Shown one piece after another: positions 1,973 to 62,886 of a stretch of DNA of 64,000 nt. The stretch covers positions 26,908,001 through 26,972,000 of the forward strand of contig NC_092002.1 of assembly GCF_044704955.1 (NCBI RefSeq), read 5' to 3'. Both the position numbers and the translations under genes were made by a program. The stretch is from Pristiophorus japonicus (taxonomy: Eukaryota). Each line of letters starts with the position of its first letter. The first letter of the stretch is position 1. The notes beneath the pieces are model-generated. The model did not search any database and was not told the origin of the DNA. It worked only from the letters and a program-made list of their open reading frames with translations.

Positions 1973-1987
1973 GCCATTGCAGAGGCC

Positions 1988-1995
1988 TATAAAAG
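1988..1995 (+). promoter_or_regulatory. TATA-box-like TATAAAAG at the 5' end of CR1-a
   Basis: Exact TATAAAAG followed by a GC/CpG-rich stretch; function is inferred only. Confidence 0.35.
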
Positions 1996-2110
1996 GCACA
2001 GCAGGGAGTCCGGGGCCCAGCGTCGGCGGCAGTCGGGAGCAGCGTCGGGAGTCCGTTGGACTTGTGCAGCTACAGGGAGAAGGCAAAAAAGAAGTAGAAA
2101 GAAACAGAAA

Positions 2111-2155
2111 GGTGACATCACAGCCAAGGGGGTAAGTGATTGGCTGGTGATTGGT
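2111..2155 (+). promoter_or_regulatory. Putative internal promoter core of CR1-a: decayed CRE (TGACATCA) plus two inverted CCAAT boxes (GATTGG x2)
   Basis: The same block is conserved in CR1-b, where the CRE is a perfect TGACGTCA (17341-17348). Confidence 0.45.
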
Positions 2156-2231
2156 GACGAGTTTTTCTTTTTTTTCTTCTATAACAGTGAGTAAACTTTA
2201 GCATTGTTGTTGCCTATCTAAGGGTTAAGTC

Positions 2232-3160
2232 ATGGCAGGAGAGCTCGGTCACGTGATATGCTCCTCCTGTACCATTCCGGTGTCCCTGACGACTACGTGT
2301 GCGGGAAGTGTATCCACCTCCAGCTTCTGACGGACCGCGTCGCGGATTTGGAGCTGAGGGTGGATTCACTCTGGAGCATCCACGATACTGAGAATGACGT
2401 GAATAGCACGTTGAGTTAGTTGGTCATACCGCAGGTGAAGGATCCACAGCCAGCTAGGGAGAGGAAGACCAGCAGGAAGAGCAGTGCAAGGAAGGTAGTG
2501 CAGGGGTCCCCTGCGGTTATCCCCCTGCAAAACAGATACACCGCTTTGAGGACTGTTGAGGGGGATGACTCATCAGGGGAGGGCAGCAGCAGCCAAGTTC
2601 ATGGCACTGTGGCTGGCTCTGCTACACAGGAGGGCAGGAAAACGAGTGGGAGAGCGATAGTGATAGGGGATTCGATTGTAAGGGGAATAGATAGGCGTTT
2701 CTGCGGCCGCAACCGAGACTCCAGGATGGTATGTTGCCTCCCTGGTGCAAGAGTCAAGGATGTCTCGGAGCGGGTGCAGGACATTCTGAAAAGGCAGTGT
2801 GAACAGCCAGTTGTCGTGGTGCACATAGGTACCAACGATATAGGTAAAAAAAGGGATGAGGTCCTATGAGATGAATTTAAGGAGCTAGGCGCTAAATTAA
2901 AACGTAGGACCTCAAAAGTAGTAATCTCGGGATTGCTACCAGTGCCACGTGCTAGTCAGAGTAGGAATTGCAGGATAGCTCAGATGAATACGTGGCTTGA
3001 GCAGTGGTGCAGCAGGGAGGGATTCAAATTTCTAGGGCATTGGAACCGGTTCTGGGGGAGGTGGGACCAGTACAAACCGGACGGTCTGCACCTGGGCAGG
3101 ACCAGAACCAATGTCCTGGGGGGAGTGTTTGCTAGTGCTGTTGGGGAGGAGTTAAACTAA
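2232..3160 (+). pseudogene. CR1 ORF1 (CxxC-CxxC zinc finger, coiled coil, SGNH/GDSL esterase), disrupted
   Basis: Motifs IGDSIVR, PGA, HIGTND, PDGLHL; 19-nt deletion near 2274 relative to CR1-b; premature stops near 2417 and at 2867-2869 (CGA>TGA). Confidence 0.92.
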
Positions 3161-6142
3161 TATGGCAGGGGAATGGGAACCAATGCAGGGAGACAGAGGG
3201 AAACAAAAAGGTGACAAAAGCAAAAGACAGAAAGGAGATGAGTAAAAGTGGAGGGCAGAGAAACCCAAGGCAAAAAACAAAAAGGGCCATTGAATGTAAA
3301 GGGGCTGCAGGAGGGGTCAAAACTAAAAATCATGCATTAAAAACTAGTATTAAAACACTCGACCTAAACGCACGCAGCATTCGAAATAAAGTAAATGAGT
3401 TGACGGCACAAATCATTACAAAAAATTACAGAAACGTGGTTGCAGGGTGGCCAAGACTGGGAATTAAATGTACAGGGGTATCTGACGATTCGGAAAGATA
3501 GACAAGAAGGGAAAGGAGGTGGGGTAGCTCTGTTAATAAAAGATGACATCAGGGCAGTTGTGAGAGACGATATTGGCTCAAATGAACAAAATGTTGAATC
3601 ATTTTGGGTGAAGATTAGAGATAGTAAGGGGAAAAAGTCACTGGTGGGCGTAGTTTATAGGCCCCCAAATAATAACTTCACGGTGGGGCGGGCAATAATC
3701 AAGGGAATAATGGAGGCATGTGAAAAAGGAACGGCAGTAATCATTGGGGATTTTAACCTACATATCGATTGGTCAACTCAAATCGCACGGGGTTGCCTGG
3801 AGGAGGAATTCATAGAATGCAAACTGGATTGTTTCTGAGAACAGTATGTAACAGAACCTACAAGGGAGCAAGCTATCTTAGACCTGGTCCTGTGTAAAGA
3901 GACAGGAATAATAAACGATCTCCTGGTAAAAGATCCTCTCGGAATGAGTGATCACAGTATGGTTGAATTTGTAATACAGATTGAGGGTGAGGAAGTAGTG
4001 TCTCAAACGAGCGTGCTATGCTTAAACAAAGGGGACTACAGTGGGATGAGGGCAGAGTTGGCTAAAGTAGATTGGAAACACAGACTAAACGGTGGCACAA
4101 TTGAGGAACAGTGGAGGACTTTTAAGGAGCTCTTTCATAGTGCTCAACAAAAATATATTCCAATGAAAAAGAAGGGCGGTAAGAGAAGGGATAACCAGCC
4201 GTGGATAACCAGGGAAATTAAGGAGAGTATCAAATTAAAAACCAATGCGTATAAGGTGGCCAAGGTTAGTGGGAAAATAGAAGATTGGGAAAATTTTAAA
4301 CGACAGCAAAGAATGACTAAGAAAGCAATAAAGAAAGGAAAGATAGATTACGAAGGTAAACTTGCGCAAAACATAAAAACGGATAAGTAAAAGCTTTTAC
4401 AGATATATAAAACGGAAAAGAGTGACTGAAGTAAATGTTGGTCCCTTAGAAGATGGGAAGGGGGATTTAATAATGGGAAATGTGGAAATGGCTGAGACCT
4501 TAAACAATTATTTTGCTTCGGTCTTCACAGTGGAAGACACAGAAAACATGCCAGAAATTGCTGGTTACGGGAATGTGGGAAGGGAGGACCTTGAGACAAT
4601 CACTATCACTAGGGGGGTAGTGCTGGACAGGCTAATGGGACTGAAGGTAGACAAGTCCCCTGGTCCTGATGAAATGCATCCCAGGGTATTAAAAGAGATG
4701 GTGGAAGTTATAGCAGATGCATTCGTTATAAACTACCAAAATTCTCTGGACTCTGGGGAGGTACCAGCGGATTGGAAAGCAGCTAATGTAACGCCTCTGT
4801 TTAAAAAAGGGGGCAGACAAAAGGCAGGTAACTAACGGCCGGTTAGTTTAACATCTGTAGTGGGGAAAATGCTTGAAACTATCATTAAGGAAGAAATAGC
4901 GGGACATCTAGATAGGAATAGTGCAATCAAGCAGACGCAACATGGATTCATGAAGGGGAAATCATGTTTAACTAATTTACTGGAATTCTTTGAGGTTATA
5001 ACGAGCATGGTGGATAGAGGTGTACCGATGGATGTGGTGTATTTAGATTTCCAAAAGGCATTCGATAAGGTGCCACACAAAAGGTTACTGCAGAAGATAA
5101 AGGTACGCGGAGTCAGAGGAAATGTATTAGCATGGATAGAGAATTGGCTGGCCAACAAAAAGTAGAGAATCGGGATAAATGGGTCCTTTTCCGGTTGGAA
5201 ATCAGTGGTTAGTGGTGTGCCACAGGGATCGGTGCTGGGACCACAACTGTTTACAATATACATAGATGACCTGGAAGAGGCGACAGAAAGTAGTGTAACA
5301 AAATTTGCAGATGACACAAAGATTAGTGGGAAAGCGGGTTGTGTAGAGGACAGAGAGAGGCTGCAAAGAGATTTAGATAGGTTAAGCGAATGGGCTAAGG
5401 TTTGGCAGATGGAATACAATGTCGGAAAATGTGAGGTCATCCACCTTGGGAAAAAAACAGTAAAAGGGAATACTATTTGAATGGGGAGAAATTACAACAT
5501 GCTGCGGTGCAGAGGAACCTGGGGGTCCTTGTGCATGAATCCCAAAAAGTTAGTTTGCAGGTGCAGCAGGTAATCAGGAAGGCGAGTGGAATGTTGGCCT
5601 TCATTGCGAGAGGGATGGAGTACAAAAGCAGGGAGGTCCTGCTGCAACTGTATAGGGTATTGGTGAGGCCACACCTGGAGTACTGCGTGCAGTTTTGGTC
5701 GCCTTACTTAAGGGAGGATATACTGGCTTTGAAGGGGGTACAGAGACGATTCACGAGGCTGATTGCGGAGATGACGGGGTTACCTTATGATGATAGATTG
5801 AGTAGACTGGGTCTTTACTCGTTGGAGTTCAGAAGGATGAGGGGTGATCTTATAGAAACATTTAAAATAATGAAAGGGATAGACAAGATAGAGGCAGAGA
5901 GGTTGTTTCCACTGGTCGGGGAGACTAGAACTAGGGGGCACAGCCTCAAAATACGGGGGAGCCAATTTAAAATCGAGTTGAGAAGGAATTTCTTCTCCCA
6001 GAGGGTTGTGAATCTGTGGAATTCTCTGCCTAAGGAAGCAGTTGAGGCTAGCTCATTGAATGTATTCAAGTCACAGATAGATAGATTTTTATCCAATAAG
6101 GGAATTAAGGGTTACGGGGAGAGGGCGGGTAAGTGGAGCTGA
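3140..6142 (+). pseudogene. CR1 ORF2 (APE endonuclease + reverse transcriptase), several stops and frameshifts; start approximate
   Basis: LNARS, VYRPP, GDFN, SDH (APE); KSPGPD, QHGF, YLDFQKAFDKV, GVPQGSVLGP, FADD (RT); CR1-type C-terminus RPHLEYCVQFWSP...RTRGH...RVVNLWNSLP. Confidence 0.95.
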
Positions 6143-6178
6143 GTCCACGGCCAGATCAGCCATGATCTTGTTGAATGG

Positions 6179-6236
6179 CGGAGCAGGCTCGAGGGGCTAG
6201 ATGGCCTACTCCTGTTCCTAATTCTTATGTTCTTAT
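6179..6236 (+). other. CR1-a 3'UTR stem-loop and octamer tail
   Basis: GGAGCAGG...CCTGTTCC complementary arms followed by (TTCTTATG)n, as is typical of CR1 3' ends. Confidence 0.75.
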
Positions 6237-9200
6237 AGAGAGACACTGCGCCTATAGAGAAACACTGAGCCTATAGAGAGAGAGACATGGAGCTTATAGA
6301 GAGACACCAAGCCTATAGAGAGAGTCACGGAGCCTGTAGAGATAGAGCTATTGAGAGACACTGAGCCTATAGAGAGAGGCACTTAGCCTTTCGAGTCACA
6401 CTGAGCCTATAGAGAGAGATACAGCGTGTATGGAGAGACACTGAGCCCATAGAGAGACACTGAGCCCATAGAGAGTGACGCTGAGCCTATAGAGAGAGAC
6501 ACTGAGCCTATAGAGAGTGACACTGAGCCTATAGAGAGACACTGAGCCCATAAAGAGGCACTGAGCCCATAGAGAGGCACTGAGCCCATAGAGAGGCACT
6601 GAGCCCATAGAGAGACACTGAGCCCATAGAGAGACACTGAGCCCATAGAGAGACACTGAGCCCATAGAGAGACACTGAGCCCATAGAGAGACACTGAGCC
6701 CATAGAGAGACACTGAGCCCATAGAGAGACACTGAGCCCATAGAGAGACACTGAGCCCATAGAGAGACACTGAGCCCATAGAGAGACACTGAGCCCATAG
6801 AGAGACACTGAGCCCATAGAGAGACACTGAGCCCATAGAGAGACACTGAGCCCATAGAGAGAGACACTGAGCCCATAGAGAGAGACGCAGAGAGTATAGA
6901 GAGATTCACTGCACCTATAGAGAGCGACACTGAACCTACAGAGAGACACTGAGCCTATAGAGAGACGCAGTGCCTATAGAGAGACACGGAGCCTATAGAG
7001 AAGGAGCCTGTAGAGAGACACTGAGCCTATAGAGAGACACTGAGTCTATAGAGAGAGAGACACTGAGCCTGGAGAGACAGACACTGAGCCTATGGAGAGA
7101 ATCACTGAGCGTATAGAGAGAGGCACGGAACCTATAGAGAGACACTGAGACTACAGAGAGAGACACGGAGTTTATAGAGAGACACTGATCCTATAGAGAG
7201 ACGCAGTGCCTATAGAGAGACACGGAGCCGAAAGAGATTGCCACAGCCGATAGAGACACTGCGCCTATAGAGAGAGATGCGGAGTCTATCGACAGACACT
7301 GAGCCTATAGACAGACACTGAGCCTATAGAGAGAGTAACTGAGCCTGTAGAGAGAGGCACTGAGCCTATAGAGAGAGATTGCGCATATAACGAGACACTG
7401 AGCCTATAGCGGAACCCAGCCTATAGCGAGAGACTCTGAGTCTATGGAGAGGAACACTGAGCCTCTATAGAGGAACAATGAGCCTATAGAGACACTGAGC
7501 CTATATAGAGAGAGACACTGAGCCTGTAGTCACTGACCCTATAGAGTGAGACATTGACGCTGTAGTCACCGATGCTATAGAGAGACACTGAGCCTATAGA
7601 CACAGCCTATGGAGACACTGAACCTATAGAGAGAGAGAGACACTGAGCCTGTAGTCACTGAGCCTATAGAGTGAGACACTGACCCTGTAGTCACTGATCC
7701 TATAGACACTGCCTATAGAGACACAGAGTCCATAGAGAGACACTGAGCCTCTAGAGATTGACACAGTCTATAGAGACACTGAGCCTATAGAGAGACACAT
7801 GGGACCGATAGAGAGAGATACTGAGCCTATAGAGAGACACATGGAACCGATAGAGAGACACTGCGCCTAGAGAGAGAGAGAGAGAGAGAGAGACACTGAG
7901 CCTATAGAGTGAGACACTGACCCTGTAGTCACTGATCCTATAGACACTGCCTATAGAGACACTGAGCCTCAAGAGATTGACACAGTCTATAGAGACACTG
8001 AGCCTATAGAGAGACACACGGAACCGATAGAGAGAGACACTGAGCCTATAGAGAGACAAACGGAACCGATAGAGACACTGCGCCTAGAGAGAGAGAGAGA
8101 CACTGAGTCGATAGAGTGAGACACTGAGCGTATAGAGAGACACTGAGCCCATAGAGAGACATGGAGCCTATAGAGAGAGATGCGTAGAGTATAGAGAGAC
8201 ACTGAGCTTATAGAGAGAGACACTGAGCCCATAGAGAGACACTGAGCCGATATAGAGGAACACTGAGCCTATAGTCACTGAGCCTATAGACACAGTCAAT
8301 AGAGACACTGAGTCCATAGAGAGACACTGAGCCTATAGAGAGAGACACTGAGCCCATAGAGAGACACTGAGCCTATAGAGAGAAATGGAGCCTTTCGAGA
8401 GAGAGAGACTGAGCCCATAGAGAGTCACTGAGCCTATAAAGAAACACTGCGCCTAGAGAGAGACATGGAGCCGAAAGAGAGAGACGTGGAGAGTATAGAG
8501 ACACTGAGCCTATATAGAGAGACACTGAGCCCATAGAGAGACACTGAGCCCATAGAGAGACACTGAGCCTATAGAAAGAAATGGAGCCTTTCGAGAGAGA
8601 GAGACTGAGCCCATAGAGAGTCACTGAGCCTATAGAGAGACACCGAGCCTATAGCCAGGCTGGGAGCCTATAGAGAGAGACGCGGAGAGTATAGAGAGAC
8701 ACTGCGCCTATAGAGAGAGACACTGCGCCTAAAGAGAGAGATACTGAACCTATAGAGAGACGCTGAGCCTATAGAGAGAGATGCAGAGCCTATAGACAGA
8801 CAGGGAGCCTATAGAGAGACACTGAGCCTATTGAGACATTGAGCCTATAGAGACAGACATGGAGCCTATAGAGAGAGACACTGAGCCTATAGAGAGACAC
8901 TGAGCCTATAGAGGGAGACACGGAGCCTATAACGAGACACGGAGCCCATAGAGAGAGAGCCTATAGAGAGACACTGAGTCTATAGAGAGACACTGAGCCC
9001 ATAGAGAAAGACACTGAGCCTATAGAGAGACACTGAGCCTCTCGAGACACACACTGAGCTCTTAGAGAGAGACGCAGCCTATAGAGACAGTGAGCCTATA
9101 GAGAGAGACACAGAGCTTATAGAGAGACACAGCGCCTATAGAGAGACACTGTGCCTATAGAGACACAGAGGCTATAGAATGACACTGCGCCTATAGAGAG

Positions 9201-12200
9201 AGATGCGGAGTCTATCGACAGACACTAAGCCTATAGAGAGACACTGAGCCTATAGAGAGAGAGACACCGCCTATAGAGAAAGTCACTGAGCCTATAGAGA
9301 AAGTCACTGAGCCTATAGAGAGAGTAACTGAGACTGTAGAGAGAGGCATGGAGCCTGTAGAGCGAGACACTGAGCCTATAGAGAGACACTGAGCCTATAG
9401 AGAGAGATTGCACCTATAACGAGACACTGAGCCTATAGCGGAACCCAGCCTATAGCGAGAGACTCTGAGTCTATGGAGAGGAACACTGAGCCTCTATAGA
9501 GGAACACTGAGCCTATAGAGACACTGAGCCTATATCGAGGAACACTGAGCCTATAGTCACTTAGCCTATAGAGTGAGACACTGACCCTGTAGTCACTGAG
9601 CCTATAGGCACTGTCTATAGAGACACTGCGCCTATAGAGAAACACTGCGCCTAGAGAGAGACATGGAGCCTTTCGAGAGAGACGCGGAGAGTATAGAGAC
9701 ACTGAGCCTATAGAGAGAGACACTGAGCCCATAGAGAGACACTGAGCCTATAGAGAGACATGGAGCCTTTAGAGAGAGAGAGACTGAGCCCATAGAGAGT
9801 CACTGAGCCTATAGAGAGACACTGAGCCTATAGAGAGTCACTGAGCCTATAGAGAGACATGGAGAGTATAGAGAGACACTGAGCCTATAGAGAGACACAG
9901 CCTATAGCCAGACTGGGAGCCTATAGAGAGACGCGGAGAGTATAGAGAGACACTGCGTCCATAGAGAGAGACACTGCGCCGAAAGAGAGAGATACTGAAC
10001 CTATAGAGAGACACTGAGCCTGTAGAGAGAGATTGCGCCTATAACGAGACACTGAGCCTATAGCGGAATCCAGCCTATAGCGAGAGACTCTGAGTCTATG
10101 GAGAGGAACACTGAGCCTCTATAGAGGAACACTGAGCCTATAGAGACACTGAGCTTATATAGAGTGAGACACTGACCCTGTAGTCACTGAGCCTATAGGC
10201 ACAGTCTATAGAGACACTGCGCCTATAGAGAAACACTGCGCCTAGAAAGAGACATGGAGCCTATAGAGAGAGACGCGGAGAGTATAGAGACACTGAGCCT
10301 ATAGAGAGAGACACTGAGCCCATAGAGAGACACTGAGCCCAGAGAGAGACACTGAGCCCAGAGAGAGACACTGAGCCTATAGAGAGACATGGAGCCTATA
10401 GAGAGAAACGCGGAGAGTATAGAGACACTGAGCCCATAGAGAGACACTGAGCCTATAGAGAGACAAGGAACCTATAGAGAGAGACACGGAGAGTATAGAG
10501 AGACACTGAGCCTATAGAGAGACACTGAGCCAATAGCCAGACTGGGAGCCTATAGAGAGAGACGCGAAGAGTATAGAGAGACACTGCGCCTATAGAGAGA
10601 GACACTGCGCCGAAAGAGAGAGATACTGAACCTATAGAGAGACACGGAGCCTATAGAGAGAGACAGGGAGCCTATAGAGAGACATGGGGCCTATAGAGAC
10701 AGAGCCTATGGAGAGGCACTGAGCCTATAGAGCAACACAGAGCTTATAGAGAGACATTGAGCGTATAGAGAGACACTGAGCCTATTGAGACATTGAGCCT
10801 ATAGAGACAGACATGGAGCCTATAGAGAGAGACACTGAGCCTATAGAGGGAGACGCGGAGCCTATAACGAGACACGGAGCCCATAGAAAAAGAGCCTATA
10901 GAGAGACACTGAGTCTATAGAGAGACACTGGGCCTAAAGAGAGAGATACTGAGTCTATAGCGAGACACTGAGCCCATAGAGAAAGACACTGAGCCTATAG
11001 AGAGACACTGAGCCTCTCGAGACACACACTGAGCTCTTAGAGAGAGACGCAGCCTATAGAGACAGTGAGCCTATAGAGAGAGACACAGAGCTTATAGAGA
11101 GACACAGCGCCTAACTGTACCTATAGAGACACAGAGGCTATAGAATGACACTGCGCCTATAGAGAGAGATGCGGAGTCTATCGACAGACACTAAGCCTAT
11201 AGAGTGACACTGAGCCTATAGAGAGAGAGACACCGCCTATAGAGAAAGTCACTGAGCCTATAGAGAGAGTAACTGAGACTGTAGAGAGAGGCACGGAGCC
11301 TGTAGAGAGAGACACTGAGCCTATAGAGAGACACTGACCCTATAGAGAGAGATTGCGCCTATAACAAAATACTGAGCCTATAGCGGAACCCAGCCTATAG
11401 CAAGAGGCTCTGAGTCTATGGAGAGAAACACTGAGTCTCTATAGAGGAACACTGAGCCTATAGAGACACTGAGCCTATAGAGAGAGAGGCACTGAGCCTG
11501 TAGTCACTGACCCTATAGAGTGAGACATTGACCCTGTAGTCACCGAGCCTATAGAGAGACACTGAGCCTATAGACACAGCCTATGGAGACACTGAACCTA
11601 TAGAGAGAGAGAGACATTGAGCCTGTAGTCACTGATCCTATAGACACTGCCTATAGAGACACAGAGTCCATAGAGAGACACTGAGCCTCTAGAGATTGGC
11701 ACATTCTATAGAGACACTGAGCCTATAGAGAGACACACGGAACCGATAGAGAGACACTGCGCCTAGAGAGAGAGAGAGACACTGAGCCTATAGAGTGAGA
11801 CACTGAGCGTATAGAGAGACACTGAGCCCATAGAGAGACATGGAGCCTATAGAGAGAGATGCGGAGAGTATAGAGAGAGACACTGAGCTTATAGAGAGAG
11901 ACACTGAGCTTATAGAGAGACACACGGAACCGATAGAGAGACACTGAGCCTATAGAGAGACACACGGAACCGATAGAGAGACACTGCGCCTAGAGAGAGA
12001 GAGAGACACTGAGCCTATAGAGTGAGACACTGAGCGTATAGAGAGACACTGAGCCCATAGAGAGACATGGAGCCTATAGAGAGAGATGCGGAGAGTATAG
12101 AGAGAGACACTGAGCTTATAGAGAGAGACACTGAGCTTATAGAGAGAGACACTGAGCCTATATAGAGGTTCACTGAGCCGATATAGAGGAACATTGAGCC

Positions 12201-13263
12201 TATAGTCACTGAGCCTGTAGAGTGAGACACTGACCCTGTAGTCACTGAGCCTATAGACACAGTCTGTAGAGACCTGAGGCTATAGAGAGGCACTGAGTCT
12301 ATAGAGAGACACTGCGCCTATAGAGAAACACTGCGCCTAGAGAGAGACACTGAGCCTATAGAGAGAGACACTGAGCCCATAGAGAGACACTGAGCCTATA
12401 TAGAGACATGGAGCCTTTAGAGAGAGAGTCACTGAGCCCATAGAGAGTCACTGAGCCTATAGAGAGACAAGGAACCTATAGAGAGAGACGCGGAGAGTAT
12501 AGAGAGACATTGCACCTATAGAGAGAGAGAGACTGCGCCTATAGAGAGAGAGTCTGCGCCTATTGAGAGAGACTGCGCCTATTGAGAGACACTGCGTCTA
12601 TAGAGAGACACAGCCTATACAGACACTGAGCCTATAGAGAGAGACACTGAGCCTTTAGAGGGACACTGAGCCCATAGAGATTGCGCCTTTAACAAGACAC
12701 TGAGTCTATAGAGAGGAACACTGCACCTATAGAGAGACACTGAGCCTATAGAGAGACACTGAGCCGATAGAGAATCACTGAGCCTATAGAGCGAGACACT
12801 GACCCTGTAGTCACTGAACCTATGGAGAGACACTGAACCTATAGACACAGCCTATAGAGAGACACTGAGCCGATAGAGATTGACACAGCCTATAGAGACA
12901 CTGAGCCTATAGAGATACACACGGAAGCGATAGAGAGACACTGAGTCTATAGAGAAACACTGAGCCAAAAGAGGGACATGGAGCCTATAGAGAGAGACGC
13001 GGAGAGTATAGAGAGACACTGAGCATAAAGAGAGAGACACGGAACCTATGGAGAGATACTGAACCTATAGAGATACACGGAGCCTATAGAGGGAGACACA
13101 GCCTATAGAGAGACACAGAGCCAAAAGAGAGAGACGCAGAGCCTTTAGAGACATAGAGGCTATAGAATAACACTGCGCCTATAGAGAGAGACACTGAGCC
13201 TATAGAGAGAGACACTGAGCGTATAGAGAAAGTCACTGAGCCTATAGAGAGACAGCCTATAGA
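6232..13263. repeat. Satellite A, block 2 (includes a homogeneous run of GAGCCCATAGAGAGACACT at about 6541-6880)
   Basis: Direct reading; variant strings recur at kb spacing. Confidence 0.97.
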
Positions 13264-13299
13264 AACATAGAAAATAGTTTCTATGGCTGATCATTCACC

Positions 13300-16290
13300 T
13301 CAGTACCCCTTTCCTGCTTTCTCTCCATACCCCTTGATCCCTTTAGCCGTAAGGGCCATATCGAGCTCCCTCTTGAATATATCCAATGAACTGGCATCAA
13401 CAACTCTCTGCGGCAGGGAATTCCACAGGTTAACAACTCTGAGTGAAGAAGTTTCTCCTCATCTCAATCCGAAATGGCCTACCCCTTATCCTAAGACTAT
13501 GTCCCCTGGTTCTGGACCTCCTCAACATCGGGAACGTTCTTCCCGCATCTAACCCGTCCCTTCCCGTCAGAATCTTATACGTTTCTACGAGATAACCCTC
13601 TCATCCTTCTAAACTCCAGTGAATAAAGGCTCAGTTGATCCAGTCTCTCCTCATATGACAATCCAGCCATCCCTGGAATTAGTCTGGTGAACCTTTGCTG
13701 CACTCCCTCAATAGCAAGAATGTCCTTCCTCAGATTAGTAGACCAAAACTGAACACAATATTCCAGGTGAGGCCTCACTAAGGCCCTGTACAACTGCAGT
13801 AAGACCTCCCTGCTCCTATACTCAAATACCCTAGCTATGAAGCCCAACATACCATTTGCCGCCTTCACCGCCTGTTGTACCTGCATGCCAACTTTCAGTG
13901 ACTGATGAACCATGACACCCAGGTTTCGTTGTACCTCCCCTTTTCCTAATCTGCCACCATTTAGATAATATTCTGCCTTCGTGTTTTTGCCCCCAAAATG
14001 GATAACCTCACATTTATGCACATTATTCTGCATCTGCCATGCATTTGCCCACTCACCTAACCTGTCCAACTCACCCCGCAGCCTCTTAGCATCCTCCTCA
14101 CAGCTCACACCACCACCCAGTTTAGTGTCATCTGCAAACTTGGAGATATTACATTCAATTCCTTCATCTAAATCGTTAATGTATATTGTAAAGAGCTGGA
14201 GTCCCAGCACTGAGCCCTGCGGCACTCCACTAGTCACTGCCTGCCATTCTGAAAACGATCCATTTATCTCGACTCTCTGCTTCCTTTCTGCCAACCAGTT
14301 CTCTATCCACTTCAGTACATTACCCCCAATACCATGTGCTTTGACTTTGCACACCAATCTCTGGTGCGGGACCTTGTCAAAAGCCTTTTGAAAGTCCAAA
14401 TACACCACATCCACTGGTTCTCCCTTGTCCACTCTGCTAGTTACATCCTCAAAAAATTCCAGAAGATTCATCAAGCATGATTTCCCTTTCATAAATCCAT
14501 GCTGACTTGGACCGATCCTGTCACTGATTTCCAAATGCACTGCTATTTCATCTTTAATGATTGATTCCAACATTTTCCCCACTACTGATGTCAGGCTAAC
14601 CGGTCTATAATTACCCGCTTTCTCTCTCCCTCCTTTTATAACAAGTGGTGTTACATTAGCTACCCTCCAGTCCATGGGAACTGATCCAGTGTCAATAGGC
14701 CGTTGGAAAATGATCACCAATGCATCTACTATTTCTAGGGCCACTTATTAAGTACTCTGGGATGCAGACTATAAGGCCCCGGGGATTTATCAGCCGTCAA
14801 TCCCATCAATTTCCCTAACACAATTTCCCGCCTAATAAGGATATCCCTCAGTTCCTCCTTCTCACTAAACTCACTGTCCCCGAGTACATTCGGAAGGTTA
14901 TTTGTGTCTTCCTTCGTGAAGACAGAACCAAAGTATTTGTTCAATTGGTCTGCCATTTCTTTGTTCCCCATTATAAATTCACCTGAATCCGACTGCAAGG
15001 GACCTACATTTGTCTTCACTAATCTTTTTCTCTTCACATATTTATAGAAGCTTTTGCAGTCAGTTTTTATGTTCCCTGCAAGCTTCCTCTCATACTCTAT
15101 TTCCCCTTCTTAATTAAACCCTTTGTCCTCCTCTGTTGAAGTCTAAATTTCTCCCAGTCCTCAGGTTTGTTACTTTTTCTAGCCAATTTATATGCCTCTT
15201 CCTTGGTTTTAACACTCTCCTTAATTTCTCTTGTTAGCCACGGTTGAGCCACCTTCCCCGTTTTATTTTTATTCCAGGCAGAGATGTACAATTGCTGAAG
15301 TTCATCCATGTGATCTTTAAATGTCTGCCATTGCTAATCCACCATCAACCCTTTAAGTATCATTTGCCAGTCTATTCTAGCCAATTCATGCCTCATACCA
15401 TCGAAGTTACCTTTCCTTAAGTTCAGGACCCTAATTTCCGAATTAACTGTGTCACTCTCCATCTTAATAAAGAATTCTACCATATTATGGTCACTCTTCC
15501 CCAAGGGGCCTCGCACAACAAGATTGCTAATTAATCCTCTCTCATTACACATCACCCAGTCTAGGATGGCCAGCTCTCTAGTTGGTTCCTCGACATATTG
15601 GTCAAGAAAACCATCCCTAATACACTCCAGGAAATCCTCCTCCACCGCATTGCTACCAGTTTGGTTAGCCCAATCAATATGTAGATTAAAGTCGCCCATG
15701 ATAACTGCTGTACCTTTATTGCACACATCCCTTATTTCCTGTTTGATGCTGTCCCCAACCTCACTACTACTATTTGGTGGTCTGTACACAACTCCCACTA
15801 GCGTTTTCTGCCCTTTGGTATTCCATAGCTCCACCCATACCGATTCCACATCATCCAAGCTAATGTCCCTCCTCACTATTGCATTAATTTCATCTTTAAC
15901 CAGCAACGCCAGCCCACCTCCTTTTCCTTTCTGTCTATCCTTCCTAATCGTTGAATACCCCTGGATGTTGAGTTCCCAGCCTTGGTCACCCTGGAGCCAT
16001 GTCCCCGTGATACCAGTTACATCGTATCCGTTAACTGCTATCTGCGCAGTTAATTCATCCACCTTATTCCGAATACTCCTCGCATTGAGGTACAGAGACT
16101 TCAGGCTTGTCTTTTTAACACACTTTGCCCCTTTAGAATTTTGCTGTAATGTGGCCCTTTTGCTTTTTGCCTTAGGTTTCTCTGCCCTCCACTTTTACTA
16201 TTCTCGTTTCTGTCTTTTGCTTCTGCCTCCATTTTATTTCCCTCTGTCTCCTTGCATAGGTTCCCATCCCCCTGCCATGTTAGTTTAACT
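13300..16290 (-). pseudogene. CR1-b ORF2 (APE + RT), frameshifted; start approximate
   Basis: ORF pieces 15334-16062 (APE: VYRPP, GDFN, SDH), 15097-15309, 14735-15037 and 13575-14744 (RT: QHGF, DFQKAFDKV, PQGSVLG, FADD). Confidence 0.95.
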
Positions 16291-17227
16291 CCTCCCCAAC
16301 AGCACTTGCAAACACTCCCCCTAAGACATTGGTTCCGGTCCTGCCCAGGTGCAGACTGTCCGGTTTGTACAGGTCCCTCTTCCCCCAGAACCGGTTCCAA
16401 TGTCCCAGGAATTTGAATCCCTCCCTTTTGCACCACTCCTCAAGCAACGTATTCATCTGCGCTATCCTGCGATTCCTACTCTGACTAGCACGTGGCACTG
16501 GTAGCAATCCTGAGATTACTACTTTTGAGGTCCTACTTTTTAATTTAGCTCCTAGCTCCCTAAATTCATCTCGTAGGACCTCATCCCAATTTTTACCTAT
16601 ATCATTGGTACCTATGTGCACCACGACAACTGGCTGTTCACCCTCCCTTTTCAGAATGCCCTGCACCCGCTCTGAGACATCCTTAACCCTTGCACCAGGG
16701 AGGCAACATACCATCCTGGAGTCTCGGTTGCAGCCGCAGAAACGCCTATCTATTCCCCTTACAATAGAATCCCCTACCACTATCGCTCTCCCACTCTTTT
16801 TCCTGTCCTCCTGTGCAGCAGAGCCACCCACAGTGCCATGAACTTGGCTGCTGCTGCCCTCCCCTGATGAGTCATCCCCCTCAACAGTACCCAAAGCGGT
16901 GTATCTGTTTTGCAGGTGGATGACCGCAGGGGACCCCTGCACTACCTTCCTTCCACTGCTCTTCCTGTTGGTCTTCCACTCCCTATCTGGCTGGGTACCC
17001 TTTACCTGCAGTGAGACCAACTCGCTAAACGTGCTATTCACATCATTCTCAGCATCGTGGATGCTCCAGAGTGAATCCACCCGTAGCTCCAGTGCCGCAA
17101 TGCGGTCTGTCAGGAGCTGCAGGCGGATACACTTCCCGCACACATAGTCGTCAGGGACACCGGAAGTGTCCCTGACTTCCCACATCGTACAGGAGGAGCA
17201 TAACATGTGTCCGAGCTCTCCTGCCAT
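16280..17227 (-). CDS. CR1-b ORF1p, intact 315 aa: zinc finger, leucine-zipper/coiled coil, SGNH esterase
   Basis: ATG to stop is open; CSSC...CGKC, LQLLTDRIAALELRVDSL heptads, VGDSIVR, HIGTND, PDSLHL. Confidence 0.9.
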   Translation of the reverse strand: MAGELGHMLCSSCTMWEVRDTSGVPDDYVCGKCIRLQLLTDRIAALELRVDSLWSIHDAENDVNSTFSELVSLQVKGTQPDREWKTNRKSSGRKVVQGSPAVIHLQNRYTALGTVEGDDSSGEGSSSQVHGTVGGSAAQEDRKKSGRAIVVGDSIVRGIDRRFCGCNRDSRMVCCLPGARVKDVSERVQGILKREGEQPVVVVHIGTNDIGKNWDEVLRDEFRELGAKLKSRTSKVVISGLLPVPRASQSRNRRIAQMNTLLEEWCKREGFKFLGHWNRFWGKRDLYKPDSLHLGRTGTNVLGGVFASAVGEELN

Positions 17228-17307
17228 GACTTAACCCTTACATTAACTTAATTTGGCAACAGCAAGGTTACTTACTGATAAAGAAAAGAAAAAGAAAAAC
17301 TACTCAC

Positions 17308-17348
17308 CAATCACCAGCCAATCACTTACCCCCTTGGCTGTGACGTCA
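17308..17348 (-). promoter_or_regulatory. Putative internal promoter core of CR1-b: CRE TGACGTCA plus two CCAAT boxes
   Basis: CCAATCA occurs twice, 12 bp apart, near a perfect TGACGTCA at 17341-17348; homologous to 2111-2155. Confidence 0.45.
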
Positions 17349-17402
17349 CCTTTCGATTTCTTTCTACTTCTTTTTTGCCTTCTCCCTGTAGCTGTACCGG
17401 CC

Positions 17403-18257
17403 CCGCCTCCTCGATCTCCCGCTCCGCCTCTCCGACCCCTTCTCGATCTCCCGTTCCGCCTCCTCGATTTCCCGCTCCGTCTCTCCGACCCCTCCTCGAT
17501 CTCCCGCTCCGCCTCCTCGATCTCCCGCTCCGTCTCTCCGACCCCTCCTCGATCTCCCGCTCCGCCTCCTCGATCTCCCGCTCCGCCTCCTCGATCTCCC
17601 GCTCCGCCTCTCCGACCCCTCCTCGATCTCCCGCTCCGCCTCTCCGACCCCTCCTCGATCTCCCGCTCCGCCTCTCCGACCCCTCCTCGATCTCCCGCTC
17701 CGCCTCTCCGACCCCTCCTCGACCTCCCGCTCCGCCTCTCCGACCCCTCCTCGATCTCCCGCTCCGCCTCTCCGACGCCTCACCAACATCCCGCTTCACC
17801 TCTCCGACCCCTCCTCGACCTCCCGCTCCACCTCTCCGACCCCTCCTCGACCTCCCGCTCCACCTCTCCGACCCCTCCTCGACCTCCCGCTCCGCCTCCT
17901 CGATCTCCCGCTCCGCCTCCTCGATCTCCCGCTCCACCTCTCCGACCCCTCCTCGATCTCCCGCTCCGCCTCTCCGACCCCTCCTCGACCTCCCGCTCCA
18001 CCTCTCCGACCCCTCCTCGATCTCCCGCTCCACCTCTCCGACCCCTCCTCGATCTCCCGCTCCGCCTCTCCGACCCCTCCTCGATCTCCCGCTCCACCTC
18101 TCCGACCCCTCCTCGATCTCCCGCTCCACCTCTCCGACCCCTCCTCGATCTCCCGCTCCACCTCTCCGACCCCTCCTCGATCTCCCGCTCCACCTCTCCG
18201 ACCCCTCCTCGACCTCCCTCTCCGACGCCTCACCAACATCCCGCTCCGCCTCCGACG
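17403..18257 (-). repeat. CpG-rich tandem array of 32-bp monomers (with 21-bp partial units) forming the 5' end of CR1-b
   Basis: + strand unit CCTCTCCGACCCCTCCTCGATCTCCCGCTCCG, period 32 checked at 17701/17733; lies inside the flanking direct repeats of CR1-b. Confidence 0.93.
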
Positions 18258-18260
18258 ATG

Positions 18261-18366
18261 CTATAGAGAGACACGTAGCCTATAGAGACACAGCTTATAG
18301 AGAGACATTGCGCCTATAGAGGGACACTGAGCCTATAGTGGGACACAGCCTATCGCGAGAGACACG
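18261..18366. repeat. Satellite A, block 3 (short spacer between CR1-b and CR1-c)
   Basis: About 5 degenerate units of GAGACACTGAGCCTATA. Confidence 0.9.
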
Positions 18367-20475
18367 TAGAAACATAGAAAATAGGTGCAGGAGTAGGCCA
18401 TTCGGCCCTTCGAGCCTGCACCACCATTCAATAAGATCATGGCTGATCATTCACCTCAGTACCCCTTTCCTGCTTTCTCTCCATACCCCTTGATCCCTTT
18501 AGCCGTAAGGGCCATATCTAACTCCCTCTTGAATATATCCAATGAACTGGCATCAACAACTCTCTGCGGCAGGTAATTCCACAGGTTAACAACTCTGAGT
18601 GAAGAAGTTTCTCCTCATCTCAGTCCTAAATGGCCTACCCCTTATCCTAAGACTGTGTCCCCTGGTTCTGGACTTCCCCAACATCGGGAACATTCTTCCT
18701 GCATCTAACCTGTCCAATCCCGTCAGAATTTTATATGTTTCTATGAGATCCCCTCTCATTCTTCTAAACTCCAGTGAATACAGGCCCAGTCGATCCAGTC
18801 TCTCCTCATATGTCAGTCCTGCCATCCCGGGAATCAGTCTGGTGAACCTACGCTGCACTCTCTCAATAGCAAGAACGTCCTTCCCCAGATTAGAAGACCA
18901 AAACTGAACATAATACTCCAGGTGAGTCCTCACTAATGGCCCTGTACATTTGCAGTAAGACCTCCCTGCTCCTATACTCAAATCCCCTCGCTATGAAGGC
19001 CAACATGCCATTTGCCTTCTTCACTGCCTGCTGTACCTGCATGCCAAATTTCAATGACTGATGTACCATGACACCCAGGTCTCGTTGCACCTCCCCTTTT
19101 ACTAATCAGTCGCCATTCAGATAATATTCTGCCTTCGTGTTTTTCCCCCCAAAGTGGATAACCTCACATTTATTCACATTATACTGCATCTGCCATGCGT
19201 TTGCCCACTCACCTAACCTATCCAAGTCACCCTGCAGCCTCTCAGCATCCTCCTCACAGCTCACACCACCACCCAGCTTAGTGTCATCTGCAAACTTGGA
19301 GATATTACACTCAATTCCTTCATCTAAATCGTTAATGTATATTGTAAAGAGCTGGGGTCCCAGCACTGAGCCCTGCGGCACTCCACTAGTCACTGCCTGC
19401 CATTCTGAAAAGGACCCGCTTATCCCGACTCTCTGCTTCCTGTCTGCCAACCAGTTCTCTATCCACGTCAATACATCACCCCCAATACCATGTGCTTTAA
19501 TTTTGCACTCCAGTCTCTTGTTTGGGACCATGTCAAAAGCCTTTTGAAAGTCCAAATATACCACATCCACTGGTTCTCCCTTGTCCACTCTACCAGTTAC
19601 ATCCTCAAAAAATTCTAGAAGATTTGTCAAGCAGGATTTCCCTTTCATAAATCCATGCTGACTTGGACCGATCCTGTCACTGCTTTCCAAATGCGCTGCT
19701 ATTACATCTTTAATAATTGATTCCAACATTTTCCCCACTACTGATGTCAGGCTAACCGGTCTATAATTACCCATTTTCTCTCTCCCTCCTTTCTTAAAAA
19801 GTGGTGTTACATTAGCTACCCTCCAGTCCATAGGAACTGATCCAGAGTCGATAGACTGTTGGAAAATGATCACCAATGCATCCACTATTTCTCGGGCTAC
19901 TTCCTTAAGTAGTCGGAGATGCAGACTATCAGGCCCCGGGGATTTATCGACCTTCAATCCCATCAATTTCTCGAACACAATTTCCCGCCTAATAAGGATT
20001 TCCTTCAGTTACTCCTCCTCACTAGACACTCGGTCCCCCAGTATTTTCAGAAGGTTATCTGTGTCTTCCTTCGTGAAGACAGAACCAAAGTTTTTGTTTA
20101 ACTGGTCTGCCATTTCTTTGTTCCCCATTATAAATTCACCTGAATCTGACTGCAAGGGACCTATGTTTGTTTTCACTAATCTTTTTCTCTTCACATGTCT
20201 ATAGAAGCGTTTGCATTCAGTTTTTATGTTCCCAGCAAGCTTCCTCTCATACTCTATTTTCCCCCTCCCAATTAAACACTTTGTCCTCCTCTGCTGTATT
20301 ACAAAATTCTCCTGTCTCAGGTTTGCTGCTTTTTCTGACCAATTTATATGCCTCTTCCTTGGTTTCAACACTTTCCTTAATTTCCCTTGTTGAGCCACCT
20401 TCCCCGTTTTATTTTTACTCCAGGCAAGGATGTACAATTGTTGAAGTTCATCCATGTGTTCTTTAAATGTTTGCC
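18367..20475 (-). mobile_element. CR1 LINE, 5'-truncated, same subfamily as CR1-b (CR1-c); RT pseudogene with complete 3'UTR
   Basis: Tail TAGAAACATAGAAA; RT ORF 19106-19978; colinear with 13283-15329; homology stops at TTGCC (20475). Confidence 0.95.
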
Positions 20476-21082
20476 TATAAAGGGAGCCACTGAGCCTATT
20501 GAGAGACACTGAACCTATAGAGAGATGCTGAGCCCTTAGAGAGACACAGAGCCTATAGAGAGAGACGTGGAGCGTATAGCGAGACACGGAGCCTATAGAG
20601 AGACACTGCGCCTATAGAGAGAGACACTGAGCTTATAGAGAGAGAGGGACACTGAACCTATCAAAAGAGACACTGAACCTATAGAGTGACACTGAGCCTA
20701 TAGAGAGACACTGAGCCTATAGAGAGACACTGAGCCTATAGAGAGACACTGAGCCTATAGAGAGACACTGAGCCTATAGAGAGAGAGAGACACTGAACCT
20801 ATCGAAAGAGACACTGAACCGATAGAGTGACACTGAGCGTCTTGAGAGACACAACCTATAGAGTGTCACTGAGCCTATAGAGAGAGACACTGAGCCTATA
20901 GAGAGAGACACGGAGCCTATAGAGAGAGACACTGAGCCTATAGAGAGAGACACGGAGCCTATAGAGAGACACTGAGCCTATAGTCACTCAGCCTATATAG
21001 AGAGACGCGGAGCCCATAGACATAGACACTGTGCCTATAGAGAAACACAACGTATAGAGAGAGACACTGAGCCTAGAGAGAG
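20473..21082. repeat. Satellite A, block 4
   Basis: Direct reading; several perfect 19-mers at about 20690-20780. Confidence 0.96.
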
Positions 21083-21130: not shown

Positions 21131-21300
21131 GAATGCCCTGTGGTGGGTGCTGCTGGTGTTGGGTATAATCCGCGTCCCGAGACTCAATGCCACCCGATGA
21201 GGAGCTGGTTAAGCGGGTACTGATTGCCGTGCAGGGCCTGGAGCTGCACGTTGACGTGTCCCTGAGTGGCTGTGGGGCTAATCGTGTGTTTCTGGCGCAG

Positions 21301-21505
21301 TGAGCAGATCAGCAAGCAACAATCTCAGATGGACCGTTTGTACGTGAGCCTGAAGGACCTCGCCGAGGAGCGGAAAGGCAAGCTCGAGCAACATTACTGG
21401 CTCTTCCAGCTCAACCGGGAGGTTGACGAACTGGAGCAGTGGATCGCACAACGAGAGGTTGTAGCGGGGTCGCCAGAACTGGGACAGGACTATGAGCACG
21501 TGACA
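21301..21505 (+). CDS. SPTBN4: Beta-spectrin internal exon (spectrin repeats), most similar to beta-IV spectrin; 205 nt, phase 2 to 0
   Basis: Acceptor TTCTGGCGCAG|, donor ACA|GTAAGT; peptide [68 protein letters not shown]; the YWL and GSPELG residues are as I recall for SPTBN4 rather than SPTBN1. Confidence 0.9.
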
Positions 21506-23546: not shown

Positions 23547-24620
23547 ATCACAGAATCTTACTGCACAGAAGGAGGCCATTCGGCCCATCGTGCCTATGCC
23601 GGCTCTTTCAAAGAGCAGTCCAGTTAGTTCCACTCCCCCGCTCTTTCCCCGTAGCCCTGTAATTTTCCCCCTTCAAGTATTTACCAAATTTCCTTTTGAA
23701 AATGACCATTGAATCTGCTGCCCCCACTCTTTGAGGCAGAGCATTCCAGGTCGCTAAAACACTGGTTAGGCCACAGCTGGAGTACTGCGTGCAGTTCTGG
23801 TCACCACGTTACAGGAAAGATGTGATTGCACTGGAGAGGGTACAGAGGAGATTTATGAGGATGTTGCCTGGACGGGAGAATTTTGACTATGAGGAAAGAT
23901 TGGAGATGCTGGGTCTGTTTTCTTTGGAACAGAGGAGGCTGAGGGGAGACCTGATTGAGGTGTATAAAATTATGAGGGGCCTGGATAGAGTGGATAGGAA
24001 GGACCTGTTTCCCTGGGCAGAGGGGTCAACAACCAGAGGGCATGGATTTAAAGTAATTGGTGGGACGTTTAGAGGAGATATGAGGGGAAATTTCTTCACC
24101 CAGAGGATGGTGGGGGTCTGGAACTCACTGCCTGAAAGGACCAAGAGCTGGAAAGTGGGATTAGGCCGGATAGCTCTTGGTCGGCCGGCACGGACACGAT
24201 GGGCCGAAATGGCCTCCTTCCGTGCTGCAAATTTCTCTGATTCTATGATCACAACACACTGTTCAAAGTAAGATTCTCCTCGTGTCGCCTCTGGTTTTTT
24301 TGCCAGTTATCTGAGCTCTGTGTGCTCTGACTACCCACTCTCCGGCACTGGCAGCAATTTCTCTTCATTTATTCTGTAAAAAACCTCATGATTTTAAACC
24401 CCTCTATCAAATCTCCCCTTAACCTTCTATGCTGTCAGGAGAAATTCTCCCAGCTTATCCAGCCCCTCCACATAACTGAATTCCCTCATCCCTGGCACCG
24501 GTCTAGTCAATCTCCTCTGCACCCTCTCAAGGCCGTGACAGACTTCCTCAAATGTGGTGCCCAGAACTCAACGCAATGTTCCAGCTGGGCCCAACCAGTG
24601 AGTTATAAAGGTTTAGCGTG
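23547..24620 (-). mobile_element. Old 5'-truncated CR1 fragment, split by a nested insertion at 23753-24250
   Basis: 3' stem-loop CAGAAGGAGGCCATTCGGCCCATC; both halves align colinearly with the fragment at 63250-63830. Confidence 0.8.
23753..24250 (+). mobile_element. 5'-truncated CR1 fragment nested in the opposite orientation
   Basis: ORF 23789-24271 matches the ORF2 C-terminus (QFWSPRYRKDVIALERVQRRF...RRLRGDLIEVYKI...TRGH); tail TTTCTCTGATTCTATGA. Confidence 0.9.
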
Positions 24621-24859: not shown

Positions 24860-25234
24860 CTACTGCTGGACAAGTTCACGGAGTTTGCTCACGAGACAGG
24901 GGTGATTGGGCAGGAGCGGGTCAACACCATCAATCAGATGGTGGACGAGCTGATTGATTACGGCCACACAGACGCAGCCACCATCGCGGAGTGGAAGGAT
25001 GGTGTGGGTGAAGCCTGGGCAGATCTGCTGGAACTGATAGAGACTCGAGCTCAGATGTTGTCAGCCTCCCAGGAACTGCACAAGTTCTTCACTGACTGTA
25101 AGGAGGTGGTTGTCCACATTGAGGAGAAACACAAACAGCTCCCGAACGTTGCCGTCGGCGATTCCAGCAGCACCTTTACTCTGCAACGAATGCTGAGTTC
25201 ATTCGAACACGATATCCAGGTGCTGGTCACACAG
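24860..25234 (+). CDS. SPTBN4: Beta-spectrin internal exon (spectrin repeats, ankyrin-binding region), 375 nt, phase 0 to 0
   Basis: Acceptor TTTCCCTCAG|, donor CAG|GTATTT; LLLDKFTEFAHETGVIGQERVNTINQMVDELIDYGHTDAATIAEWKDG...TRAQMLSASQELHKFF...FEHDIQVLVTQ joins in frame to the previous exon. Confidence 0.92.
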
Positions 25235-25369
25235 GTATTTCTTCAGTTATCTGTCATTGTCCTTCTGCTTTCCTTGTCCTTGCAGTGCGAGTGTTGTCGG
25301 GCGCAAGATCTCGGGCCACCCGCTCAGTCACAGGCAACCGCCTCGTTTAAACCGGAGTTTGGAGTTTGC

Positions 25370-62602: not shown

Positions 62603-62886
62603 GGTTGAGGGAGGCGGTGGAGGAGCGTGGGTGGGGGCTGGGCGGGACCCCTCACTCGGGGCCGAAGCAGCAAGCCCCCCTTCCGGAGGTGAGCTGAAGG
62701 CGGTGTCCAGGTGGGGTCTAACTCGGGCTTCGGTACGGTGCACGGTGCCGGCCCACCGCTGTCTGCCTCACCGGTGAGCCAGGTCGAATGGCGAGATGTT
62801 GCTGCATTTACACCGTTGATACAAGGCACAGGAGGCGCAGGCTTGTCCATTTCAGTCAAAATACCCTTTCAACAATGTGATGATTG

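Follow-up and report, generated by a model that had tools for sequence, protein, structure and literature searches.

Two CR1 retrotransposons of Pristiophorus japonicus raise the question of how elements can look like two copies of one lineage at the front and like distant lineages at the rear. The window analyzed, a 64-kb stretch of DNA, contains two long copies, CR1-a and CR1-b, and a third, CR1-c (table 1). All three are flanked by one and the same 19-bp satellite. Two spectrin-repeat exons lie on the + strand downstream of the CR1/satellite block.

Table 1. Positions of the CR1 copies, their modules and the satellite in the 64-kb window.
Feature	Position	Strand	Remarks
CR1-a	~1973-6238	+	long copy, decayed
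CR1-a 5' module	1973..2063	+	~90 bp, internal repeats of 9-14 nt
CR1-a shared 5'UTR core	2064..2231	+	TGACATCA, GGTAAGT, GATTGG twice; 144/158 identical to CR1-b
CR1-a ORF1, SGNH esterase type	2232..3160	+	855/929 nt and 267/308 codons (same amino acid) as CR1-b
CR1-a ORF1 end, G-TTA-AAC-TAA	3151..3160	+	ORF2 in -1 frame; candidate frameshift site; CR1-b equivalent 16289-16280
CR1-a shared basic linker, start of ORF2 frame	3161..3289	+	113/129 nt, 32/44 aa identical to CR1-b
CR1-a breakpoint interval	3265..3292	+	best point 3282 (CR1-b 16158); reading frame unbroken across it
CR1-a ORF2 (APE + RT), a-type	3290..6142	+	stops and frameshifts; 68.1% nt identity to CR1-b
CR1-a 3'UTR and tail	6143..6238	+	tail TTCTTATG; passes into satellite at TTATAG
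CR1-b	18260-13257	-	long copy; ORF1 open
CR1-b 5' module	17398..18260	-	~25 copies of a 32-bp tandem repeat
CR1-b shared 5'UTR core	17228..17397	-	TGACGTCA palindrome
CR1-b ORF1	16280..17227	-	open, 315 aa, SGNH/GDSL esterase
CR1-b shared linker	16152..16279	-	aligned with CR1-a linker
CR1-b ORF2 (APE + RT), b-type	13300..16151	-	decayed; Pfam domains
CR1-b 3'UTR and tail	13257..13299	-	tail TTTCTATG; ~50 nt shorter than CR1-c 3'UTR
CR1-c	18366..20475	-	5'-truncated, b-type ORF2; internal calibration for the CR1-a/CR1-b comparison
19-bp satellite	6234..13254; 26-1954, 18261-18364, 20484-21082		first array lies between CR1-a and CR1-b

The copies appear to be canonical vertebrate CR1 elements, judging from an ORF2 with APE and RT, an ORF1 of the esterase type (type IV) and a microsatellite tail; their placement in the clade would follow from ORF1 matches in sharks and rays and from a by-eye likeness to published consensus sequences. 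ORF1 of CR1-b carries CxxC...CxxC at its N-terminus and matched PF13472 (E 2e-12) and the PDB entry 4c1b, 'ORF1-encoded protein' (E 5e-29), and its ORF2 matched PF03372 (E 2e-9), PF14529 (E 6e-9) and PF00078 (E 3e-31). No Pfam match was obtained with the three short open pieces of the CR1-a ORF2 that were scanned, and the homology of its domains is based on the 60-68% amino acid identity of its APE and RT to those of CR1-b. The CR1-a ORF1 is disrupted by a 19-nt gap near 2274 and by stops at 2417 and 2867. We take the motifs of the CR1-a 5'UTR core to be CRE-like, splice-donor-like and CCAAT-like. The canonical vertebrate CR1 ends in a short microsatellite instead of poly-A, and all three copies have 8-nt tails, that of CR1-c being TTTCTATG as in CR1-b. 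In the accessible text of PMC13343379, poly-A is confined to Zenon. Positions 1900-25400 contained no Rfam match.

Global alignment of the front block (CR1-a 2066-3289, CR1-b 17395-16152), which runs from the 5'UTR core through ORF1 to codon 43 of the ORF2 frame, gave 1112 identical bases in 1216 ungapped columns (91.4%), whereas the rear part of CR1-a (3290-6142) was identical to CR1-b at only 1916 of 2815 positions. The sequence-only reading had set the shared region at these same coordinates and had reported an abrupt loss of similarity at the N-terminal linker of ORF2, and both statements were confirmed. When a single change-point was fitted, the log-likelihood ratio reached 144, while none of 200 permutations exceeded 10.5; the 2-unit support interval is the breakpoint interval of table 1. 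Differences rose from 102/1209 before the change-point to 901/2822 after it (Fisher p 1.7e-64). Uniform identity along the elements is ruled out by this step, and the RT peptides previously quoted as differing are both present in the sequence.

Synonymous sites gave the same picture. Among four-fold degenerate sites, 17 of 122 differed in ORF1 and none of 9 in the linker, as against 40/57, 12/23 and 53/89 in segments of ORF2 (105/169 in total), and dS was 0.158 in ORF1, while pS in ORF2 was 0.73-0.77 and thus saturated (NG86). These results demonstrate that CR1-a and CR1-b form a mosaic with a defined breakpoint. That ancestry differs between the two sides of the breakpoint is decided by the contrast in pairwise dS, whereas the putative parents were assigned by eye, using the first 400 nt of consensus sequences together with the RT partners they have in common. 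The cassette is also wider than had been proposed, since it takes in the ORF1/ORF2 junction.

CR1-c allows the closeness of the front block to be calibrated. CR1-b and CR1-c were identical at 1867 of 2034 positions (91.8%, dS 0.16-0.18), and CR1-c sided with CR1-b at 575 sites, versus 63 and 77 for the other groupings, a result that holds in every 200-column window. The earlier description of the front as 'nearly identical' and of the recombination as 'recent' was therefore overstated, because the shared block is only as close as CR1-b is to CR1-c. The sharing of UTR and ORF1 itself is real, and the transfer of a promoter-ORF1 cassette between two deeply split ORF2 lineages is supported, but a dS of 0.16 weakens the claim that the transfer was recent. 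Moreover, the cassette differs at 8.6% of sites with a dN/dS of about 0.39, indicating that part of this divergence accrued under selection.

In Table S5 of PMC13343379, RT Ks values of 0.19-0.44 are given for matched CR1 lineages of dogfish and white shark. Compared with these values, a cassette dS of 0.16 between two decayed copies implies that the swap need not be young, and an age of tens of millions of years may be plausible. Dating is blurred by the catshark consensus ScyCan_CR1-1a, whose ORF1 end is about 90% identical to that of CR1-a (a count by eye gave some 27 mismatches over 270 nt), as this stretch may evolve slowly.

The 5' and 3' ends of the elements were compared separately. 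The end of similarity upstream of about 2066/17395, and the view of the 5' end as a separate module, were upheld: nothing is shared beyond 2064/17397, and the 5' ends of CR1-a and CR1-b are unrelated although their cores are shared. A search for similarity between the CR1-a 5' module and the CR1-b 5' array (17406-18224, period 32, 24.7 copies) gave a local score of 18, which was reached by 252 of 500 shuffles. In the supplement of PMC13343379, the first 400 nt of SquAca-7 and -15b, read by eye, contain a common 5' tandem repeat while their RT partners are disjoint, supporting a separate 5' module. 5'UTR replacement is described as frequent in mammalian L1 in the accessible part of PMC5381506. 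At the 3' end, the difference in tails that had been noted is real, while the contrast in 3'UTRs was inflated because CR1-b lacks about 50 nt that are present in CR1-c. CR1-a and CR1-c were 76% identical (86/113) over the end of ORF2 and the 3'UTR, which is above the ORF2 average.

ORF1 of both long copies ends in the same sequence with ORF2 in the -1 frame (table 1), and no ATG is common to the two linkers. Slippery heptamers for -1 frameshifting follow the consensus X XXY YYZ, to which G-UUA-AAC is an imperfect fit; relatives have U-UUA-AAC. A C-terminal Leu-Asn (LN) was found in 55 of 77 ORF1-like matches, and in the supplement of PMC13343379 TTTAAACTA stands at the ORF1 end in 15 of the 20 rows listed of 23 matches, from elephant shark to crocodile. 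A stimulatory structure is expected 5-9 nt downstream of such a site, but among simple hairpin folds no strong structure was found after the candidate heptamer: the hairpins were weak, at -6 kcal/mol (z -1.5) and -8.1 kcal/mol (z -1.4), and 21 and 22 of 200 shuffles folded equally well. Two stingray gene models (P0003 and P0191), which are predictions only, run ORF1 into ORF2 at the junction. Taken together, the data suggest a candidate -1 frameshift that would fuse ORF1p to ORF2p through the basic linker. Older turtle and chicken CR1 papers reportedly discuss the overlap of the ORFs; a search of titles and abstract starts, with most subscription papers outside its coverage, returned no paper on CR1 frameshifting. 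With or without a frameshift, the linker lies free of constraint between domains that fold on either side of it, and promoter core, ORF1 and junction travel as one cassette.

Among 88 protein matches to ORF1, the best were two P. japonicus proteins (84-86% identity), followed by two others at 74-78%. The remaining full-length relatives were at most 59% identical, with sharks and rays spanning 45-60%, and the other named matches were mostly from sharks and rays. ORF1 is thus not generally as conserved as the cassette of CR1-a and CR1-b. The CR1-a ORF1 was 89-90% identical to the two P. japonicus proteins and 87% to CR1-b, and these three clustered apart from CR1-b with a bootstrap value of 88 in a hand-picked subset of 17 sequences. 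At the 39 residues that differ between CR1-a and CR1-b, both proteins agreed with CR1-a at 21 and with CR1-b at 9; about four of the 21 are derived against both outgroup proteins, and most of them reflect CR1-b's own decay.

The direction of the exchange was addressed with consensus sequences in the supplement of PMC13343379, of which the first 400 nt were compared by eye and the RT grouping was read indirectly from shared cross-species partners; as products of automatic extension, the consensus sequences may themselves be chimeric. Dogfish SquAca_CR1-1 has the linker of CR1-a and CR1-b followed by a b-type APE start. Its RT group in Table S5, based on shared cross-species partners, includes SquAca-5, SquAca-11 and white shark CarCar-20, whose visible ORF1 is of the type found in CR1-a and CR1-b. 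In white shark, the APE of CarCar_CR1-19c resembles the CR1-a type, and CarCar-19a, CarCar-10 and SquAca-21, whose family number or RT identity places them with it, have another ORF1 type. Dogfish and white shark each seem to possess both ORF2 lineages. The occurrence of b-type ORF2 with this linker in dogfish, and of a-type ORF2 with another ORF1 in white shark, points to CR1-a as the recipient, and the cassette is most likely native to the CR1-b lineage, with transfer from b to a. Six a-type APE motifs sought in the same supplement gave no match, and four of five linker, APE and junction motifs were uninformative there.

Other sharks showed similar combinations in this supplement. Catshark ScyCan_CR1-1a, for which 62 insertions were counted, has a CR1-a-like ORF1 end and the same linker start, followed by a third APE type, and by eye the switch falls within the same linker as the CR1-a breakpoint. 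Dogfish SquAca-14 and -6a agree nearly letter for letter in the UTR and the start of ORF1, with no RT partner in common (3 and 10 listed). In white shark, CarCar-5 matches CarCar-6, -12 and -15 in the 3' half of its UTR and where ORF1 begins, and the RT partners listed for it differ from those of -6 and -12. Sharing of cassettes between distinct RT groups therefore appears to recur in dogfish, white shark and catshark.

The CR1-a junction probably belongs to a recombinant family that was propagated, rather than to a chimera formed once. The frame is intact across the join, and stops have accumulated on both sides of it (2 of 308 ORF1 codons and 5 of 806 ORF2 codons, one or two of which may be alignment artefacts). 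These features, and the grouping of the CR1-a ORF1 with the P. japonicus proteins, hint at propagation. It is unlikely that a single template switch at this insertion joined an a-type ORF2 to a b-lineage 5' half that never replicated. Such an event would account for the absence of a second copy of the junction from the searches made, since a linker profile run against longer proteins gave none in 17 candidates and a GTDB scan for contaminant shark contigs returned nine unrelated loci at 23-29%, none of them a CR1. Protein searches of this kind carry neither linker nor genomic context. A search for fused ORF1-ORF2 proteins found only two ray gene models at 58-60%, of no use for linkage, and plasmid blastn gave no match. 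Chimeric insertions are documented for L1 in the accessible part of PMC13174262, and the two CR1-a-like P. japonicus ORF1 proteins could adjoin a b-type ORF2. On the other hand, an in-frame join is expected by chance in one case in three, a full-length chimera would be rare a priori among full-length copies, and mosaics of the same form appear at the family level in three other sharks, with 62-1975 insertions per family (Table S3 of PMC13343379).

A local event after insertion was rejected as very improbable, whether gene conversion between CR1-a and CR1-b, which lie only 13 kb apart in inverted orientation, or nesting of a 5'-truncated a-type element in a b-type linker, insertion between ORF1 and ORF2 being a proposed route of ORF1 shuffling (PMC4120745, accessible text). 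Against it, the shared block bears the divergence and dN/dS given above, the CR1-a ORF1 is closer to other copies than to CR1-b, and no b-type ORF2 remnant follows the CR1-a tail, which passes directly into satellite. A nested insertion in an ancestor may nevertheless have founded the CR1-a family.

Strong constraint at the DNA level, holding UTR, ORF1 and linker together while ORF2 diverged without any recombination, was likewise rejected and is hardly credible. The catshark similarity across the ORF1 end would fit such constraint, but the four-fold sites contrast sharply between ORF1 and ORF2, the non-coding UTR tracks ORF1, the change is stepwise and not gradual, identity to the ORF1 of other sharks and rays drops to 45-60%, and by eye the a-type ORF2 group elsewhere bears another ORF1 type. 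An assembly artefact fusing the halves of two copies, to which the position of all three CR1 copies in satellite arrays might point, was rejected as scarcely conceivable, because unique sequence surrounds the join, the closest satellite being about 1.3 kb away, the frame is kept across it, and the CR1-a 5' half is no duplicate of that of CR1-b.

CR1-a is thus probably a recombinant LINE, in which ORF2, 3'UTR and tail of an old lineage were combined with promoter core, ORF1 and ORF1/ORF2 junction from the CR1-b lineage. In the proposed mechanism, ORF2 would be read by a -1 frameshift at G-UUA-AAC, and the 43 or more codons after this site would form a low-complexity linker before the APE domain. 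This linker may be the sole place where elements 68% identical can be joined in frame, sparing both the folded domain and the junction signal. RT copying an a-type RNA from its 3' end would have switched to a b-lineage RNA in the A/G-rich linker, and as the switch would lie after the frameshift site, ORF2 would be kept in frame. The recombinant would have been active and then spread, and its extreme 5' end could have come to differ from that of CR1-b by a separate exchange or replacement. A plausible driver would be selection for a promoter or ORF1 escaping host silencing. Recombination at the DNA level may have acted instead of template switching, and would leave the same signature in these data.

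Mosaics of this kind are known from the mouse LINE-1 families Gf and Tf (Sookdeo et al. 2013, PMC3600994), in which ORF1 and the 5' end of ORF2 derive from one lineage and the rest of ORF2 from another. According to the accessible text of that study, Gf recombined twice independently near the 5' end of ORF2, at breakpoints separated by about 30 bp; the three mechanisms proposed include strand switching by RT, and 5'UTRs were exchanged too. In mouse, the parental lineages had been active in the past few million years, whereas the shark ORF2 lineages are 68% identical with synonymous sites saturated; in addition, ORF1 of mouse L1 is of the coiled-coil/RRM type and that of shark CR1 is an esterase.

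Earlier work on reticulate evolution in CR1/L2 proposed that recombination or cross-insertion can carry an ORF1, esterases among them, from one ORF2 lineage to another (Metcalfe and Casane 2014, PMC4120745; an esterase study, PMC3905857). In the accessible portions of these papers, reticulation was inferred from domain types across clades and over deep time without a nucleotide breakpoint, and the word 'shark' is absent from that of PMC4120745. The present exchange, by contrast, joins esterase subtypes of CR1 itself and is mapped to a 28-nt interval. The canonical CR1 families of elasmobranchs (Stuart et al. 2026, PMC13343379) have the same esterase ORF1 and APE-RT ORF2, and by eye CR1-b resembles their SquAca_CR1-1/5/11 group and the CR1-a ORF2 their CarCar_CR1-19/SquAca_CR1-21 group. 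The main text of that study, as accessible, contains neither 'recombination' nor 'frameshift' and notes modular ORF1 turnover at a deep scale only, so that mosaics visible in the supplement are undiscussed there. A search of titles and abstract starts on CR1/LINE inter-family recombination and shark CR1, with Repbase reports and most subscription papers outside it, found no shark report of such a mosaic, and the accessible part of PMC4255032 held nothing relevant to one. The kind of mosaic is therefore known; what is new is the depth of the joined lineages, the mapped and apparently reused breakpoint region, and the tie to a conserved ORF junction.

As a tentative extension, which we regard as possible though doubtful, the modules of shark CR1s (5' tandem repeat, promoter core, ORF1 with frameshift signal, ORF2 with tail) might be drawn from a common pool and reassorted. 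Promoter-ORF1 cassettes would sweep repeatedly through RT lineages whose origin predates the extant orders of sharks, via a linker hotspot after a vertebrate-wide -1 frameshift giving an esterase-APE-RT fusion protein, and some cassettes may cross shark species.

In sharks and rays, CR1-group elements make up 22-34% of the genome, and their classification uses only the RT (PMC13343379, accessible text). If cassettes move between RT lineages, many coexisting families would share regulation and packaging in a way that is hidden from RT trees, and 80/80 family definitions would blend histories. Hitherto, domain types were the basis for proposing ORF1 exchange in CR1; with a breakpoint that is mapped and recurs, such exchanges can be counted in the genome of any shark. 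The conserved ORF1/ORF2 junction offers a testable route by which CR1 makes ORF2, and it can likewise be tested whether the many CR1 lineages of sharks survive because they take over whichever promoter is successful at the time, a strategy proposed for L1 of mammals.

CTATAG or TTATAG was found at the point where CR1 meets the 19-bp satellite at five of six ends of the three copies in the window, and this motif overlaps the CR1 tail sequence. These junctions suggest either pairing between tail and target or a target preference, and target duplications of 7–9 nt are possible at them. The motif may also stand at the CR1 ends by chance, as the density of CTATAG in the 19-bp satellite is 25.5 per kb. 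Copy CR1-b (13262-13299, minus strand) lacks about 50 nt of 3'UTR that are present in CR1-c and CR1-a, and its tail was retained despite this loss.

In the satellite array of 26–27 bp units, ORF patterns recur at an offset of about 9.9 kb with a self-match of 84%, and this array apparently contains a higher-order duplication of that length. The decayed element had no Pfam match in the domain scans; its translation looks like an RT of the Penelope type whose end is GIY-YIG-like.

Features of the window, with strand and basis of assignment
Feature	Position	Strand	Basis
CR1/satellite junctions	1964-1972, 6232-6240, 13257-13263, 18261-18267, 20475		
Two spectrin-repeat exons of host gene	~21280-21490 and 24860-25235	+	PF00435
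3' fragments of other CR1 families, older and more diverged	23735-24271 (+), 24247-24615, 63433-63796		67-72% matches
35-kb array of 26-27 bp satellite	25369-60516		
Decayed element	61410-62868	-	translation

At the 3' end of CR1 ORF1 a slippery-type heptamer precedes the stop codon, and ORF2 lies in the -1 frame (3151-3160, plus strand, and 16289-16280, minus strand). Among the matches listed from the PMC13343379 supplement, CR1 consensus sequences with the same TTTAAACTA ORF1 end represent elephant shark, rays, sharks, bowfin, coelacanth, frog and crocodilians. In the literature searched, no paper on frameshifting in CR1 was found by title or opening of the abstract.

One ORF1 relative, P0162, comes from a 4.2-kb contig and is labelled as an SGNH hydrolase of Pseudomonas aeruginosa. 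It matched CR1 ORF1 at 59% identity, with 95% of the length covered, and was placed among shark ORF1s in a tree of 17 sequences, a hand-picked subset of the matches; it is probably a contaminant or mislabel.

The ORF1 end of CR1-a (2932-3200, plus strand) was, by eye, about 90% identical to the catshark consensus ScyCan_CR1-1a, a higher similarity than in the dogfish-catshark RT comparisons seen in part of Table S5 of PMC13343379. Either slow evolution or transfer between species could account for this closeness. The promoter core shared by CR1-a and CR1-b (2064-2170, plus strand; 17397-17290, minus strand) resembles by eye the cores of the dogfish families SquAca_CR1-15a/15b, -3 and -18 in the first 400 nt of their consensus sequences. 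In these consensus starts, ORF1 is of another type than that of CR1-a and CR1-b. The promoter core may constitute a fourth exchangeable module of these elements.
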